Below the pieces are notes generated by a model. That model was given only the letters and a program-made list of their open reading frames with translations. It was not told the origin of the DNA and did no database searches. Both the position numbers and the translations under genes were made by a program. Positions 1-40,642 of a stretch of 41,650 nucleotides of DNA are shown here, one piece after another (position 1 is the stretch's first letter; the number at the start of each line of letters is the position of its first letter). The stretch is from a virus. Taxonomy: Duplodnaviria > Heunggongvirae > Uroviricota > Caudoviricetes. The stretch spans positions 1 to 41,650 of the IMG/VR virus record IMGVR_UViG_2778261458_000005. One strand, 5' to 3'.

Positions 1-201
1 TTACCCATTGGCGCGGGTTAAGAGCTTATTTTTGAATTCACAATGGTCACGATATAACCATCTTGCTCGCCCGTGGATAACTTTGGCTTTTGGCAGGTCG
101 CCGGACTTAATCCGGTCATAGATGAAGGTTTTACCAAAGCCAGTATCAGCCATGATGAATTTCAAATCAACCAGTGAATCAGGCTGTAGTTCGTGTTGCA
201 T
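1..201 (-). CDS. torI: Recombination directionality factor (excisionase), AlpA/TorI family
   Basis: 66-aa ORF with AlpA-type HTH (LKFIMADTGFGKTFIYDRIKSGDLP); matches my recollection of E. coli KplE1 TorI; GGAG RBS 9 nt upstream; last gene of the leftward early operon. Confidence 0.75.
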   Translation of the reverse strand: MQHELQPDSLVDLKFIMADTGFGKTFIYDRIKSGDLPKAKVIHGRARWLYRDHCEFKNKLLTRANG

Positions 202-220
202 GAGTGCTATCTCCGAATAG

Positions 221-236
221 GGAATCGAACCTGCAA
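221..236. repeat. 16-bp exact copy (GGAATCGAACCTGCAA) of the tRNA-Arg T-arm segment found at 40582..40597
   Basis: Direct read: identical 16-mer at both prophage ends, same orientation; flanks differ on both sides. Confidence 0.6.
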
Positions 237-244
237 ATCAGGCA

Positions 245-266
245 ATAAAAAACCGCATTGATGCGG
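245..266 (-). terminator. Rho-independent terminator candidate (minus strand)
   Basis: Hairpin CCGCA-TTGA-TGCGG followed on the minus strand by a T-run; sits between the 114-aa ORF and torI. Confidence 0.45.
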
Positions 267-322
267 CGATGGTAGGTCTGGATATCATTGAGAAATGCAC
301 AGGCCTCATCGAGTGTGAGGCG

Positions 323-667
323 TTAGTCCTTGCGTAGCTCGCTGATTCTTCTGTAAGTCTCTGGCGCTTTGTTTCCGTGTATCTTCATTTCAGACTTCAA
401 CAGAGCAACGAGGGAATCCCATTCGTTGAGGATGCCTTTGAATGCCGGAACGCGCTTTGCAACCTTGTCGAATGAATCTCTGATTTCTGGAATCTGCTCA
501 ACAAGTGCAACGCATCGTCGGAAGTCGGCTGCGTCATGTGGAGCGCCGAAGTGATGACCATAGATATTCTTTTTCAGTCCACATGCGATTGAGGCAAGAG
601 TTGCGCTACTGATGCCAACATCGCCAGTCGATTGCCATTTCAAAACCTTCATAGCCAAATCTGACAT
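323..667 (-). CDS. Hypothetical early-left protein (114 aa)
   Basis: ATG with GGAGA RBS 6 nt upstream; no family recognised. Confidence 0.55.
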   Translation of the reverse strand: MSDLAMKVLKWQSTGDVGISSATLASIACGLKKNIYGHHFGAPHDAADFRRCVALVEQIPEIRDSFDKVAKRVPAFKGILNEWDSLVALLKSEMKIHGNKAPETYRRISELRKD

Positions 668-680
668 TTCTTGTCTCCAA

Positions 681-702
681 TAAAAAAACCGCCATCAGGC
701 GG
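681..702 (-). terminator. Rho-independent terminator candidate (minus strand)
   Basis: Hairpin CCGCC-ATCA-GGCGG followed by a T7 run on the minus strand, immediately after the stop of the upstream ORF. Confidence 0.5.
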
Positions 703-862
703 CTTGGTGTTCTTTCAGTTCTTCAATTCGAATATTGGTTACGTCTGCATGTGCTATCTGCGCCCACAGCATCCAGTGGTCATAGCAGTCGTTGATGTTC
801 TCTGCTTCGATAACTCTGTTGAATGGTTCTCCATTCCATTCACCTGTAACTCGGAAGTGCAT
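695..862 (-). CDS. Hypothetical small protein (about 55 aa from the first ATG)
   Basis: ORF-track frame 695..877 starts at TTG; first ATG at 862 has a GGAGA RBS. Confidence 0.4.
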   Translation of the reverse strand: MHFRVTGEWNGEPFNRVIEAENINDCYDHWMLWAQIAHADVTNIRIEELKEHQAA

Positions 863-897
863 TCGTGATTTCTCCAAAAGATGCTTGAGTGCGCTTC

Positions 898-1209
898 TTA
901 TTCGATTCGCACACCTGGTATTTCGCCTTTTGAAATGGCTAAGTCATAAATTTGCGCAGCACTATACCCATCTCGCATCCATGAATCTAAGGCGCGAACA
1001 GCCTCGCTACGCTTTTTATCTTCTCTCTCATTTTTGATATCAACGAGGACATCAACGCAATTAAGGCAAATGTGGATTTTGTCCTTACATTCGATCATGG
1101 CGGCTTTGCCATGATTTCCGCCACACAGTGAGCATAAATCTTCAGGGTCTGACTGGTATTTCTGTAACGTTAGAGGGTTGAATGTTGAACAGGCCATAAT
1201 CATCTCCAT
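898..1209 (-). CDS. Hypothetical Cys-rich (zinc-ribbon-like) protein
   Basis: CSLCGG...CLNC cysteine pairs suggest a small metal-binding fold; ATG start. Confidence 0.5.
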   Translation of the reverse strand: MEMIMACSTFNPLTLQKYQSDPEDLCSLCGGNHGKAAMIECKDKIHICLNCVDVLVDIKNEREDKKRSEAVRALDSWMRDGYSAAQIYDLAISKGEIPGVRIE

Positions 1210-1303
1210 AAAACAAAACTCGCCGTAGCGAGTTCAGATAAAAGAAATCCCCGCGAGTGCGAGGATTGTTATTCACCTTTGACGGCAAGTTGCAGGTTAG
1301 CCA

Positions 1304-1531
1304 TCACTCATCATCCTCATCCCAATCATCATCGTTATCGTCAACCGCCCATAACAGTGGGTTGGTACCTTTGCTTATCTGGCTTGCATATCCGCTACGT
1401 CCAAGGCTTCTCAACACGTTGTATATTTCAAACATCTCAGTGCGTTCATCGCCAATGTCTAGCTGGCAGGCCAGTGCGTGACACTCTGAAGCGAGCGAGG
1501 CTAACTTTTGGAGGAATTCTTGTTTACTCAC
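1304..1531 (-). CDS. Hypothetical small protein with acidic C-terminal tail
   Basis: GTG start with AGGAGG RBS; C-terminus DDNDDDWDEDDE; overlaps the upstream stop (GTGA). Confidence 0.5.
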   Translation of the reverse strand: MSKQEFLQKLASLASECHALACQLDIGDERTEMFEIYNVLRSLGRSGYASQISKGTNPLLWAVDDNDDDWDEDDE

Positions 1532-2436
1532 GGATTCACCTCCTGCGGTGGTTCTGGTAGCGGCATCCAGTGAGTTACGTCATCCAAGATATTTCCTGAT
1601 AAATACGTGAAAGCTCTATATTTTTTGTAATCAATTGGATTTACAACCCAGTTCCAATATGCGGCCACGATTTCACCTTGACTAAATGCCAGTAACATTT
1701 TGGTGTCTTCCGGCATTCGCTCACTACAGCTTATCCAACCATCCGGAGTTACCGGAACTTGCGGAATGGCTGTCTGCTCTCGAACGTCATTAGGCGCTAT
1801 AGGTTCTGCTGCCAACTGACTGGCATATTTGTTAATGGTAACGATAAGCTCTTGCTCAGCCTCATCCAGACAATCACCGATACCTCGCCTGTCACCGTCA
1901 AAATCATCGAAATCGGCACGAATCTTGGCAACCTTCTGGATTGCGGACAACACCTCACTAGGAATTACCGGATAGTTGGTTGACGTTTCCGCGATTTCCC
2001 GAAAATTACTGGTTGACGAATTCTTGTTTTCCCGAAAGTTTCCGGACTGAAGCATAGCGGCACGGCAGGAGTTCCAGCCAGCTGTTCGCCCAAGAGCGTA
2101 AACTTCAGATGGCTCAAGATAATCAATGTCATGCCCGTCCTCATCGTCGTTCTCAGGTAATGCAGCAGGTACTACCGGTACTGGCGGAGCGGCGTAGACT
2201 TCAATAATCCCATTATCAATAGGCCATTCTCCATCCTTGAGATAGTCACTTGTGCCGTCAACTTGCTGTTCAGCAATGTGGAATGCACCAACTGGCTCTG
2301 CCTCAAGCGAGGCCAGTGCAATTCGTGCCAGTTCCCTAAGATTTTCGCTATATGGTGAAGTATTATCACGATTGATTATGTGATTAGCTGTATCTATGAG
2401 AACTTGCTTTTGTTCTTCTCTGTTCATAGTGGTCAT
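1528..2436 (-). CDS. Hypothetical phage protein with C-terminal DUF551-like region
   Basis: Start taken at internal ATG 2436 (GAGAG RBS, adjacent to upstream stop); C-terminal W...WMPLP motif resembles DUF551. Confidence 0.55.
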   Translation of the reverse strand: MTTMNREEQKQVLIDTANHIINRDNTSPYSENLRELARIALASLEAEPVGAFHIAEQQVDGTSDYLKDGEWPIDNGIIEVYAAPPVPVVPAALPENDDEDGHDIDYLEPSEVYALGRTAGWNSCRAAMLQSGNFRENKNSSTSNFREIAETSTNYPVIPSEVLSAIQKVAKIRADFDDFDGDRRGIGDCLDEAEQELIVTINKYASQLAAEPIAPNDVREQTAIPQVPVTPDGWISCSERMPEDTKMLLAFSQGEIVAAYWNWVVNPIDYKKYRAFTYLSGNILDDVTHWMPLPEPPQEVNP

Positions 2437-2437
2437 A

Positions 2438-3070
2438 TCACTCTCCTTTGATGCGAATGCCAGCGGCGCGTGGCACATTAACTTCCACGATGCGCACAGT
2501 TGGTTTGTACATCTCAATCGCTGTCAGCCAGTCAGCGCCGGTCATATGCTTTTCTGCATCGCCATTAGTCCATTGAACCGGCACACCAATAGCTTTCATC
2601 GCAATTTCTATTTCCCCGGCAATGGCGCTTTTCCCGCAACCAGTAAAACCAGAGACAACGACAAGAACTTCGCCTTTGGCTGGTTTTATTTCCCGTGCTT
2701 CCAGTTCAGCAATACGCTTACTCCCATCCGAGATAACACCTTCGTAATATTCACGCTGCTCGTTGAGTTTTGATTTTGCTTCCTCAAGCTCAACACGCAG
2801 TTTCCCTACCGTTAGCGCAATATCCTCGTTATCCTGATCGCGGCGTTTTATGTATTGCTGGTTTCTTTCCCGTTCATCCAGCAGCGCCAGCACGGTTTCT
2901 GGTCCGGTCAGAAATTTGAAGGCGTTGAGCGCATCAATATCCACACCGTAATCCTTAAGTTCCTGTTCAGTTAACAAATCATCATCAACTGGCAACATTA
3001 ACAGGCGTTCCATTGCTGGAATTGCACGTTCCGCCGCCTCGCGCAGTTCTTGATAGTTAATTTCGCTCAC
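2438..3070 (-). CDS. Hypothetical coiled-coil protein with a Walker-A-like motif
   Basis: GFTGCGKS fits GxxxxGK[ST]; charged helical N-half; ATGA overlap with the next gene. Confidence 0.55.
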   Translation of the reverse strand: MSEINYQELREAAERAIPAMERLLMLPVDDDLLTEQELKDYGVDIDALNAFKFLTGPETVLALLDERERNQQYIKRRDQDNEDIALTVGKLRVELEEAKSKLNEQREYYEGVISDGSKRIAELEAREIKPAKGEVLVVVSGFTGCGKSAIAGEIEIAMKAIGVPVQWTNGDAEKHMTGADWLTAIEMYKPTVRIVEVNVPRAAGIRIKGE

Positions 3071-3624
3071 TGGATGACTCCTTTACGAAGCTGTTCAGCG
3101 ATATCTTCGAGAACGCCATCAGAGAATGAGCGGTCAAAATCTCCTTCCGGCGCATTAGCCATAAAATCAGTAGAGGTAAGAATCATCTGGGCAATATCCT
3201 CGGCGTTCTTCGCAGTATCATCAATAAAACCAACTTTCCAGGCAGCCAGCATTCTGTTCGCCACAAAGTAAGCGCCCTCCTTGCGTGCTTCAGTCTTCAC
3301 TTCAGCCAAGAAAGCGTCGGTGGCTGGGGTTTCAGTAACATCATCTTCCCATTCGCTAAACTCCTCACGACAAAGGTCATTAAATTCCTTCTCAGATTGC
3401 TTAAGCGAGGTATTTTCTGCAGCCATCTTCGCGCATTTAGCCTCAAGGTTATCAATCGTGATTCCAGCAGAACGACACTCCCGCAACGCCGTTTCTAGTT
3501 TTGATTCAAGTTCACCGAACTTACGCACCAGATATTCAGCGTTTGTTTCGTTAACCTTTAAATCTCGTGGGAAGCATTTACCTTTCAGAAAACCATCCAT
3601 CTCAATTAGTGACATTAGTTTCAT
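3067..3624 (-). CDS. Hypothetical early-left protein
   Basis: ORF-track start 3642 is GTG; preferred ATG at 3624 overlaps the stop of a small upstream ORF (ATGA). Confidence 0.5.
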
Positions 3625-3785
3625 TTCTTCCCACTCCGCCACATAGCATTCAGATATTTGTTGTCATTAACAGAACCGAAACTATTTCTCTTAAGCAATT
3701 CCTCTCTCGATGGCATTGGCTTTACGCGTTGGCGAATAATCATTTCTGCCGGAAGAATGCCGGGATTGTATGCAAGTCCTCTCAT
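3621..3785 (-). CDS. Hypothetical small protein (54 aa), below the ORF-track cutoff
   Basis: ATG with AGAGGA RBS 7 nt upstream; stop overlaps the downstream start. Confidence 0.35.
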
Positions 3786-3801
3786 GGTAAATTCCTCTTT
3801 G

Positions 3802-4116
3802 TTAATTTATTCGTATGCCTGTTCTCTCTTCATCGAGTTTTTTTAGCTTGTATCGCATAGCTCTTACTGAATAAATTGAGCGGCAGGTTGCAATTGCTAT
3901 TTCTTCTGCGGAGAAATTACCGAAAAGTGATACTTCGGCTCTTGTCCAGCGTCTTCCACGAAGTCGGCTAACAATGTCAGCGCCAATCCTTGTTGCTTTC
4001 GCCATTACTGCTTTTTCAGTCCTTTCCAGTTTTTCAGCGATAACTTCAACTGGCATTGTCGCCGCCACTTCGCGCAAGAAATCGACTTCCCATTTCTCCC
4101 ATGGAGTCTTTTTCAT
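3802..4116 (-). CDS. Hypothetical protein with possible C-terminal HTH
   Basis: 104-aa ORF filling the gap in the leftward operon; weak RBS. Confidence 0.45.
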
Positions 4117-4127
4117 AGGCGATACCG

Positions 4128-4610
4128 TTATTTGATAAGAAGTGAAGGTTTCCCAACTTTGAGTTGAGCGCCGGGGATATTTATTCCTGCTTTTAGTTGG
4201 TGTTTGATTGCCAGTTTGTCGGCTTTAATTGTCGTTTCAAACTCAACGTATTCAGGAGGAAGGGCGCTTGAGTCGATTATTTCTACAATTTCTGACGGTT
4301 TGCGAATTGTTACCTGGTGAATACCTGCTCGAATCTTTTTCTTGCCAACCATTTCAAGCGATGACGCTATATATGCCATAATGCTGTCAATCTTATTTTG
4401 AATTACTGCGGCTCTCTCATTTAGTGACTTTGCCTCTTCCTTGAGGCGTTCAGCATAACCAGATTCATTTTTAATAATGGCGAGAAGTTGCTCTATTTTA
4501 TCGGTAAATTCTCCTTCCATGCCTTCTATTGTGTCAGCAATCATCTCTGGCTCTAAATCTGAATCCATCAATTTTGCGTATTCATTGGCAATTTCATACA
4601 GTTTGCTCAC
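4128..4610 (-). CDS. Recombination-associated coiled-coil protein (Sipho_Gp157-like, tentative)
   Basis: Start taken at GTG 4610 with GGAGG RBS; immediately downstream of RecT as is typical for this family; family assignment from memory only. Confidence 0.5.
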   Translation of the reverse strand: MSKLYEIANEYAKLMDSDLEPEMIADTIEGMEGEFTDKIEQLLAIIKNESGYAERLKEEAKSLNERAAVIQNKIDSIMAYIASSLEMVGKKKIRAGIHQVTIRKPSEIVEIIDSSALPPEYVEFETTIKADKLAIKHQLKAGINIPGAQLKVGKPSLLIK

Positions 4611-15202: not shown

Positions 15203-15277
15203 GGGTCAGTCGTATAAAGGTCATTACGGAAGGCTGTTAACCTTCTTATCGTGGTTCGAGTCCACGCTGTCCCGCCA
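15203..15277 (+). tRNA. Phage tRNA, atypical; anticodon GUU (Asn) if the fold is correct
   Basis: Manual fold: T-arm CGTGG-TTCGAGT-CCACG, anticodon stem GAAGG/CCTTC with loop CTGTTAA, 3' GCCA; one acceptor mismatch and a compressed D-arm. Confidence 0.45.
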
Positions 15278-15282
15278 AATAT

Positions 15283-15358
15283 GCTGGTTTAGCTCCAATG
15301 GTAGAGCGGTCGCCTTGTAAGCGAATGGGTAGCGGTTCAAGTCCGTTAACCAGCACCA
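15283..15358 (+). tRNA. Phage tRNA, anticodon UGU (Thr) by manual fold
   Basis: Perfect acceptor stem GCTGGTT/AACCAGC, D-arm GCTC-CAATGGTA-GAGC, anticodon loop CTTGTAA, T-arm AGCGG-TTCAAGT-CCGTT, 3' ACCA. Confidence 0.7.
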
Positions 15359-39248: not shown

Positions 39249-40406
39249 TCACTCCACCTTTTCATCAACCCAATCCGCCCACCACTGCATCATTTCTCTG
39301 CGCTTATCGAGATACTGAGCATGGTTGTAAATTCCACGTACAGATCCGCCATTGGCATGTGCCAGTTGCACTTCAATAGCATCAGCAGGCCATTCGTGCT
39401 CGTTCATAATCGTGCTAAATTCATGCCTGAATCCGTGACCGCTTTCCAGACCTTCATAGCCGATTTGTTTGATCACAAGCAGTACCGCGTTCTCGCAGAT
39501 TGGCTTCTTCTTATCGTTGCGACCGGCAAAAACAAACTCTGACACTGGTTTAGTGATTGAGCTTAGCGTAGTGAGAAGTTCAACCACCTGGTCTGACATA
39601 GGAACCACATGAATTTTGCGTCCCTTCATCACACTGGCGTCGATGGTGATAATCCTGTTTTCAAAATCGACGTTCTTCCATTGCATGGAACGAAGCTCTT
39701 TCGTTCTTAGGACTGTGTAGCGTAAAACTTTGGTCGCAATGAGCGATACGATACTTCCTGAAAATGTTGCCAGTGCTTTATTGAATGCTGGGATCTGGTC
39801 GGCAGGTAAAAACGGGAAGTTCTTCTTGCGGTATCCCTTCATGGCGTCAGCAAGGTCAGGTGCCGGATTATATTTAGCCCTGCCGGTGACAATAGCGTAA
39901 CGGAAAACCTCGCCGCATCTTCTGCGTGCTTTGTTGGCTCGCTCCATTGCGCCGCGATCTTCAAATCTGCGGATTACTTCCAGCAGTTGCATCGGCTCAA
40001 TATCCTGAATTTCAAGGCCGCCGATGATGGGTAAAATGTCGTCATCAAACATTTTTGCAAGTTCAGTCGCATACCCTACTGACCAGACTTGCTTCTTGTG
40101 TTCGTACCATTCCTTGTAAATTGCACTAAAGGAATTGTTGTTAGACGAAGCCTTTTTCGCTTTTACCGGATCGATGCCAACCGAGATGTCTTTCCTCGCA
40201 GTCCATGCTTTATCCCTTGCATCCTGCAAAGTCATAAGCGGATATTTTCCGACAGTCAAGATTTTCTCCTTACCTTCAATCTTGTAGCGAAGCTGCCATA
40301 CCTTTTTCCCGGATACAGGGACATAAAGGTACAGGCCATTACCATCGAGTAGGCGGTATGGTTTTTCTTTTGGCTTTGCTGCTTCAATCTGCTTAACGGT
40401 GAGCAT
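39249..40406 (-). CDS. intS: Tyrosine integrase (P4/IntS type)
   Basis: Start taken at ATG 40406 (385 aa, the K-12 IntS length; ORF-track start 40442 is GTG); N-terminal arm-binding motif KPYRLLDGNGLYLYV; C-terminal catalytic HxxR...Y region. Confidence 0.9.
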   Translation of the reverse strand: MLTVKQIEAAKPKEKPYRLLDGNGLYLYVPVSGKKVWQLRYKIEGKEKILTVGKYPLMTLQDARDKAWTARKDISVGIDPVKAKKASSNNNSFSAIYKEWYEHKKQVWSVGYATELAKMFDDDILPIIGGLEIQDIEPMQLLEVIRRFEDRGAMERANKARRRCGEVFRYAIVTGRAKYNPAPDLADAMKGYRKKNFPFLPADQIPAFNKALATFSGSIVSLIATKVLRYTVLRTKELRSMQWKNVDFENRIITIDASVMKGRKIHVVPMSDQVVELLTTLSSITKPVSEFVFAGRNDKKKPICENAVLLVIKQIGYEGLESGHGFRHEFSTIMNEHEWPADAIEVQLAHANGGSVRGIYNHAQYLDKRREMMQWWADWVDEKVE

Positions 40407-40567
40407 GGGTAAAAATCCGGTGGGTAAAATTATTTTATCCACTTTTTACCCGTCATGGAGTGCGGCTGTCAACGATCTGACGCGAACCATTACGAACTGC
40501 TAATCTACGGAAGGCTTGATATTCATGGGATTTTGCGGACTGGTACGGATGGTAGAGAACTGATAAA

Positions 40568-40642
40568 TGGTGTCCCCTGCAGGAATCGAACCTGCAATTA
40601 GCCCTTAGGAGGGGCTCGTTATATCCATTTAACTAAGAGGAC
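40568..40642 (-). tRNA. argW: tRNA-Arg, anticodon CCU
   Basis: Minus strand folds as a 75-nt tRNA (GTCCTCTTAGTTAAATGG...GGTTCGATTCCTGCAGGGGACACCA), anticodon loop CCTCCTAAG; matches E. coli argW as I recall it. Confidence 0.9.

Follow-up and report, generated by a model that had tools for sequence, protein, structure and literature searches.

Introduction

What is an exact 16-nt copy of a bacterial tRNA T-arm doing directly in front of the excisionase gene of a prophage that is itself integrated at that tRNA gene? The question bears on how excision is decided in KplE1-type prophages, whose torI gene is present in about one complete E. coli genome in four. Since the integrase is always present in these prophages, the decision falls to expression of the gene for the excisionase (RDF), and Panis et al. 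(2010) describe the control of excision as resting on this expression and as still not understood. An element that derives from the integration target and stands just upstream of the torI ribosome-binding site is a candidate operator for this step. If this is true, a fragment of an attachment site has been recruited for regulation; if the element is inert, the finding shrinks to an att-site anatomy that is correct and already known.

A known recombination module at argW

The stretch of DNA analysed here (the window, 41,650 nt of the IMG/VR record IMGVR_UViG_2778261458_000005) contains a prophage that resembles P22, Sf6 and HK620 and carries the known KplE1 IntS/TorI module at argW. Its right end consists of yfdC and argW, and its left end is the torI stop codon at position 1. 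The parts of the module are these:

1..6: first IntS arm-type site of the P arm, GGGTAA over the torI stop codon
1..201, minus strand: torI, excisionase (RDF), 66 aa, from the torI annotation in RefSeq relatives
39249..40406, minus strand: intS, integrase, 385 aa, ATG at 40406, from the Sf6 and HK620 annotations
40407..40451: IntS arm-type P' sites, overlapping the intS promoter (GGGTAAAA at 40407 and 40422; TTTTACCC, inverted, at 40444)
40472..40499, minus strand: TorI sites I3 to I5 (sense CAGTTCGT, TGGTTCGC and CAGATCGT), mapped from the positions and pentamers in PMC2951348
40535..40562, minus strand: TorI sites I1 and I2 (sense CAGTTCTC here, and CAGTCCGC)
40567..40582, minus strand: true attL core (sense CTGCAGGGGACACCAT), the same sequence as the published core of KplE1, Sf6 and HK620
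40568..40642, minus strand: argW, tRNA-Arg(CCT), called by ARAGORN

The 16-nt core, which is the argW 3' end, lies at both ends of the prophage. The intS gene stands beside attL and is transcribed inward, torI reads towards attR from the opposite end, and attP falls between xis and int, with intS and torI in the same order as in Sf6 and HK620. GGGTAAA(A) IntS arm-type repeats are joined in the P' arm by five TorI sites with GTTCG, GATCG or GTCCG, matching the published description of TorI sites as 8-nt units with these cores and of IntS arm sites as containing TAAA (PMC2951348). Site I1, at 40555..40562, reads CAGTTCTC here and CAGTTCGC in K-12, Sf6 and HK620.

The second attachment site had been predicted from the sequence alone to lie just left of position 1, and this is where it was found. 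The contig GCA_002463995.1 (L003) matches window positions 1..4201 with 0 mismatches and continues past the torI stop codon with 73 nt of P arm, then CTGCAGGGGACACCAT, then unrelated host DNA, so that in window numbering the attR core falls at -73..-88, beyond the left end. A leftward extension had been expected to reveal a repeat of tRNA positions 46-75; a repeat of the tRNA 3' end is present, and it is 16 nt long instead, starting with the T-stem 3' strand and reaching one base beyond CCA. The same layout, with the core beyond torI, is found in K-12, E. coli 90-1, Sf6 and HK620. In the Sf6 record the attP core is annotated as ATGGTGTCCCCTGCAG, ~75 nt downstream of the torI homologue (gene 18) and upstream of int, and the HK620 layout is that of Sf6. 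The KplE1 core has been published as the 16-nt CTGCAGGGGACACCAT (Panis et al. 2010, PMC2951348), the Kapi1 core is the KplE1 sequence with one base more and its attP lies between int and xis (PMC8787464), and the excision, attP and attB data of the literature use this core (PMC2951348, PMC8787464). The att-site anatomy is thus already known biology, which the sequence-only reading had deduced correctly.

At some attR junctions identity is limited to TGCAGGGGACA, which places strand exchange inside TGCAGGGGACA; we infer that IntS would recombine within this part of the 16-nt core, and position the overlap region there. At the attR junctions of L011, L015, L022/L280 and L212, which come from several species, the host-side repeat identity stops at TGCAGGGGACA and lacks the CCA end. 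These short host-side repeats represent either exchange inside TGCAGGGGACA or secondary or degraded sites.

An exact repeat away from the crossover

The leader repeat and its surroundings comprise the following features:

221..236, minus strand: element of the torI leader that copies 16 nt of the argW T-arm exactly (sense TTGCAGGTTCGATTCC)
252..267, minus strand: intrinsic terminator preceding the torI leader, a homologue of tL before xis in phages 434 and HK022
268..275, plus strand: 8-mer GATGGTAG, also at 40548..40555
40582..40597, minus strand: the 16-mer within argW (TT of the variable loop, 5' strand of the T-stem, T-loop and 2 nt more)

An exact search bore out the repeat on which the sequence-only reading had been built: GGAATCGAACCTGCAA is found at just two places in the window, 221..236 and, inside the tRNA, 40582..40597, both times on the plus strand and hence in the same orientation. 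The chance expectation for a given 16-mer is ~2x41650/4^16 = 2e-5 per window, so the repeat is not a product of chance. The ARAGORN call at 40568..40642 (minus strand) puts the second copy inside the T-arm, on the bacterial (B) side, where it adjoins the core and shares 1 nt with it. The left copy had been placed 20 bp upstream of the torI start, after a terminator hairpin; the terminator does precede it in the sense of torI, and its distance to the torI ATG is 19 nt.

That 221..236 might itself be the true prophage junction, leaving torI as a stranded remnant outside the element, had been kept as an alternative, and the two 16-mers are indeed direct repeats near both ends of the prophage DNA. 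The free genomes of Sf6 and HK620 decide against it, since they have phage DNA on both sides of the 16-mer and torI between the 16-mer and attP; moreover, the contig identical to the window carries the real attR, with the canonical core repeat 73 nt past torI. As an att crossover site the 16-mer fails on the same flanks, and in argW it falls on the host side of the identity block. Together with the published use of the canonical core for excision, attP and attB, these observations mean that the reading is already refuted, and we give it practically no chance.

The 8-mer met a different fate. It is present at both positions where it had been noticed, but as a shared binding site it fails: at least two matches of GATGGTAG are reached in 16 of 100 dinucleotide shuffles, and the corresponding sequences are GATGGAGG on the attL side of Sf6 and AATGGTAG on the torI side of E. 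coli 90-1. The copy at 40548..40555 sits in the variable spacer between TorI sites I1 and I2. Being reached by shuffled sequence and not conserved, it is a chance match outside the system.

Neither the 16-mer nor the 8-mer contains a GGGTAAA(A)/TAAA motif, and both were rejected as arm-type IntS sites. The proposal that they serve as arm-type integrase sites gives way to the true arm sites at 40407, 40422, 40444 and the torI stop codon. Excision has been obtained in vitro with an attR of 135 bp, for which the phage-side primer was placed in the final ~24 nt of torI (PMC3509656). The leader 16-mer is therefore not needed for excision in vitro, and the long attachment arm that had been envisaged through the torI promoter is not necessary there.

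The prophage also has tRNA genes of its own, tRNA-Asn(GTT) and tRNA-Thr(TGT), at 15203..15358 on the plus strand. Elsewhere in the window, GGTTCGATTCC has a near match only in the T-arm of this tRNA-Thr, with 1 mismatch.

The leader motif across lineages

Two further features define the part of the leader that is shared between genera:

233..220, minus strand: cross-genus conserved motif CAGGTTCGATTCCC
230..223, minus strand: invariant GTTCGATT in the leader

We compared loci with TorI homologues at 60-85% identity from Enterobacter, Serratia, Pantoea, Citrobacter, Edwardsiella, Dryocola, Tatumella, Arsenophonus and others, as well as from IMG/VR contigs. These loci keep the arm sites, and most have a TGCAGGGGAC(A/G)CCA core ~75 nt past torI. 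The 16-mer itself is found in the leaders of K-12, Sf6 and HK620 and at ~160 E. coli-type loci in IMG/VR and metagenomes, with occasional single-base variants. The leader motif CAGGTTCGATTYCC is present in 16 distinct lineages (Enterobacter, Serratia, Pantoea, Citrobacter, Edwardsiella and others), where GTTCGATT is 100% conserved, the CAG and YCC positions are 62-100% conserved and the flanking columns fall to 38-69%. Between the same lineages the four-fold degenerate sites of torI are mostly 35-60% identical, that is, synonymous sites are near saturation, and because the leader block stays invariant despite such divergence we conclude that it is under purifying selection.

Its position varies little. 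The G of GTTCG lies at -26 to -35 from the torI ATG, mostly at -28/-29, and between the end of the motif and the Shine-Dalgarno sequence there are 3-6 nt, or 13 nt in a single lineage. Tandem duplicates of the motif are present in at least three lineages, with a 16-nt period in L215, L216 and L218 and a 13-nt period in L288 and L013, and these duplications are independent. Conservation, fixed position and duplication together indicate a selected protein-binding site. Of the 16 bases first noticed, only 13 fall within the conserved motif. Because the position preceding CAGG is free to vary, the additional TTG of E. coli is specific to that lineage; it coincides with the TTGC repeat. When we looked for covariation of the leader motif with the host T-arm, the sole further attL that we recovered (L310) had the same T-arm. 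A metagenome scan returned E. coli-type (98%) copies only and added no diversity, and a viral pattern scan for TGCAGGGAACGCCA returned mostly unrelated contigs. The stretch 221..236 is thus the E. coli-lineage form of CAGGTTCGATTYCC, an element of the leader that is conserved, occurs in duplicate in some lineages and imitates the host half of the att site.

Could the element nevertheless be a non-functional scar or module-boundary 'linker', its few argW bases left by aberrant or secondary-site recombination, retained at the int/xis module's left edge and useful at most as microhomology for mosaic exchange? Its identity to the tRNA stops right at the border of the crossover block, which a recombination product would be expected to show, homology between lineages often starts at the motif with unrelated DNA upstream, and Sf6 carries the label 'boundary sequence' here. 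Moreover, ~10 torI lineages with the same core lack the element (L017, L019, L020, L024-L030, L227, L289 and L291), which makes it dispensable, and Dryocola L017 resembles the outcome of a 24-nt deletion between CTGG repeats that removed it. An invariant 8-mer with 62-100% identity at six flanking motif positions in 16 lineages cannot, however, be neutral, and the independent tandem duplications point to selection. A deletion junction between the two 16-mers, argW-16mer-torI, was absent from 5426 complete E. coli genomes. On balance we consider an inert scar improbable. Within the E. coli population, point variants in the motif are about as common as in its flanks.

In the Proteus hauseri locus (L027), at 3960..4100, a tRNA-Arg(CCT) is immediately followed by GTTCGC at a 10-nt period, in the manner of TorI-type sites, and a torI homologue lies on the other strand at a distance of only ~1.3 kb. 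This array may represent either a very small remnant or a module that has been rearranged.

Promoter and RNA signals in the torI leader

Two features of the leader bear on transcription and translation:

211..214, minus strand: torI Shine-Dalgarno sequence GGAG, 6 nt downstream of the 16-mer and 5 nt after the 14-nt motif
233..245, minus strand: TTGC-N5-TTGC direct repeat, whose second TTGC is the first 4 nt of the 16-mer

Phage records offer an explanation at the level of transcription. In HK620 (AF335538) the equivalent of 208..246 is labelled a 'phage integration' promoter and the equivalent of the TTGC repeat within it a 'cII protein' binding site, and Sf6 annotates the same place as 'pI'. 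The T-arm-like bases could on this account be the -35/-10 spacer of a CII/C1-activated pI-type promoter that transcribes int across attP while lysogeny is being established. In phages 434 and HK022 the same terminator is followed by a canonical TTGC-N6-TTGC pI box before xis, with which the repeat at 233..245 is homologous in position, and Arsenophonus L024 has a lambda-like box directly before torI. However, the spacing here is N5, and a canonical N6 box was not found in the leader; no sigma-70-like hexamer pair was detected in 1..1000; and the TTGC box is often absent elsewhere, with L014, L016, L021, L215 and L282 lacking it yet retaining GTTCGATTYCC. Neither invariance nor tRNA identity nor duplication would be expected of a spacer. 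A lambda-type CII-dependent pI promoter thus does not account well for the leader, and we consider a pI-type promoter quite unlikely as the explanation of the conserved motif.

Over the whole window, TTGC-N5-TTGC occurs 10 times against 3.5 expected, a number that 0 of 100 shuffles reach, and the N6 form is not enriched (6 against 3.5). Just upstream of the motif, the two copies of the direct repeat, which has a 9-nt period, vary in step, with TTGC..TTGC in E. coli and TTAC..TTAC in L213. This coupling, seen in the leaders of L213, L015, L018 and E. coli, hints at a second, separate recognition element.

Further upstream, a 114-aa ORF at 323..667 (within 252..705, minus strand) is bracketed by intrinsic terminators at 267..252 and 705..686. 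Sf6 and most E. coli-type relatives lack this ORF and have the second terminator joined directly to the torI leader, so that the ORF looks like a moron-like cassette and the T-runs of the terminators like mosaic junctions. A sub-threshold Rfam match to isrK lies at 682..742 (E = 0.28).

A further possibility is that the element acts as RNA, either by folding into a T-arm-like hairpin within the leader of the torI mRNA or by masking GGAG as an anti-Shine-Dalgarno strand. Its fixed distance to the Shine-Dalgarno sequence and the ATG would fit such a role, the Shine-Dalgarno position being kept at -12/-13 among the 17 motif-bearing leaders that we folded. For L018 and L213, folding predicts a GGUU..AUUUCC/GGAGAU..AACC hairpin (z = -1.8 and -2.9) with the Shine-Dalgarno sequence fully paired, and T-arm-like stems are possible in L014, L021 and L013. 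Yet Shine-Dalgarno pairing does not exceed shuffled controls in 15 of the 17 lineages, the exceptions being L018 and L213 themselves, z-scores of the minimum free energy are mostly near 0, and the T-arm-like stems are not conserved. The pairing partners vary without compensation and GGUUCGAUU never varies. Neither ARAGORN nor Rfam detected a tRNA or RNA family at 150..330, and a tRNA or tRNA-like element at the leader was rejected on these grounds. We regard an RNA-level element as very improbable.

Candidate binders of the leader motif

If the motif is read as DNA, the module itself suggests which proteins might read it, and we propose from the sequence comparison that the element probably binds the phage's own recombination proteins and so controls excision. 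The nine bases to the left of TGCAGGG in attB, within the tRNA, are TTCGATTCC, and the last 9 nt of the leader 16-mer are identical to them; the match of the leader to the tRNA stops exactly where the block of phage/host identity begins. At the same place the attP consensus of 29 lineages is (A)ATTCGATGTA. The consensus of the attP C half-site, AATTCGATGTA followed by TGCAGGG, shares TTCGAT both with the B site, GTTCGATTCC followed by TGCAGGG, and with the leader motif. With the overlap region where we infer it to be, TTCGATTCC is the left half-site of attB, and our best guess is that the leader motif corresponds to an isolated B-type IntS core half-site.

The GTTCG within the motif raises the other candidate, the excisionase itself, which might bind the leader as an operator and autoregulate torI, by analogy with its repression of PintS via I4 and I5. 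RDFs such as Apl, Cox and Vis also act as regulators, which counts for this idea. GTTCG is one of the three published cores of the 8-nt TorI units (PMC2951348), the leader sequence AGGTTCGA resembles I4 (TGGTTCGC), L203 and L207 carry CAGTTCGA, which is the CAGTTCG consensus and unlike the tRNA, and tandem direct repeats are typical of RDF sites (PMC7498355). Set against the usual TorI form CAGTTCG(C/T), however, the leader has the GTTCG but differs in the AG before it and the A after it, and in ~20 genuine TorI sites from several lineages the following base is C or T, never A. Conservation in the leader runs 6 nt past GTTCG, through ATTYCC, where TorI sites have no consensus; the duplicates are spaced 13 or 16 nt, as against 10 or 20 nt in the P' arms; and most lineages have a single copy. 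We therefore rank IntS above TorI as the binder, on account of the base after GTTCG and of the conservation at ATTYCC, and consider a TorI operator unlikely.

Several observations also count against the IntS half-site. Binding of tyrosine recombinases to isolated half-sites is usually weak. The E. coli attP C site (GTAGATGTC) departs from TTCGAT, which suggests that IntS recognition is tolerant. Repression of PintS by IntS is unchanged when the core site is mutated (PMC2951348). To these are added the dispensability of the element, the sufficiency of the 135-bp attR and the frequency of variants within E. coli.

Discussion

We suggest that a fragment of argW was captured into the phage and that the core-binding and catalytic part of IntS is the candidate binder of the resulting B-type half-site. 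IntS, which is constitutive in lysogens, would then occupy the torI leader, possibly bridged to the GGGTAAA sites of the P arm at the torI 3' end, and this occupancy would damp torI expression or read-through, thereby tying the excision switch to integrase occupancy. That the leader copy is a core-type IntS site which couples torI expression to integrase occupancy, as the sequence-only reading had also proposed, is plausible on these comparisons. That IntS does occupy the leader and gates the excision switch is a tentative proposal, to which we give less than an even chance. The fuller picture, in which the leader mimics the attB half, the integrase gates excision through the domain that would read the tRNA T-loop, and captured target DNA provides a feedback that duplication has amplified in some lineages, strikes us as doubtful in its entirety.

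In the accessible literature the leader T-arm copy is not discussed, phage records offer only a putative pI promoter or cII site at this position, and a text search combining the motif with 'integrase' returned nothing relevant. New relative to this literature is the finding that the T-arm copy in the torI leader is selected, positionally fixed, sometimes duplicated, and mimics the bacterial half of attB.

The closest known system is the argW module of KplE1 (CPS-53), HK620, Sf6, CUS-3 and Kapi1, with which the prophage shares the 16-nt core CTGCAGGGGACACCAT and an attP between xis (torI) and int. In that family, as here, intS adjoins attL with its promoter within the P' arm, torI reads towards attR from the far end, and five TorI sites accompany the GGGTAAA arm sites; the 16-mer leader is likewise present in K-12, Sf6 and HK620. 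The module itself shows no difference from the family, and the prophage here is full-length (~40 kb) and P22-like. Compared with KplE1 of K-12, its TorI is an S62T variant and its I1 site contains GTTCT.

The leader also resembles the tL-pI-xis junction of lambda, 434 and HK022, where the same upstream terminator and a TTGC direct repeat precede GGAG and the RDF start codon. In contrast to that junction, the repeat here is spaced by N5 and not N6, and ~20 extra nt, the T-arm copy, lie between the box and the Shine-Dalgarno sequence. The RDF and integrase that the module encodes are, in addition, unrelated proteins of the P4-type and TorI families, with attP between them.

Finally, the proposed role has counterparts among operators that control integrase or RDF genes, such as those of IntS and TorI at PintS, P4 Int and Vis, 186 Apl and P2 Cox. 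These too are short conserved sites beside a recombination gene, sometimes arranged as direct repeats, in or beside the att arms, and the effect proposed for the leader, as for them, would be on the ratio of Int to RDF. Unlike these operators, the candidate site described here copies the bacterial half of attB instead of an arm-type or RDF consensus, and it lies upstream of the RDF gene.
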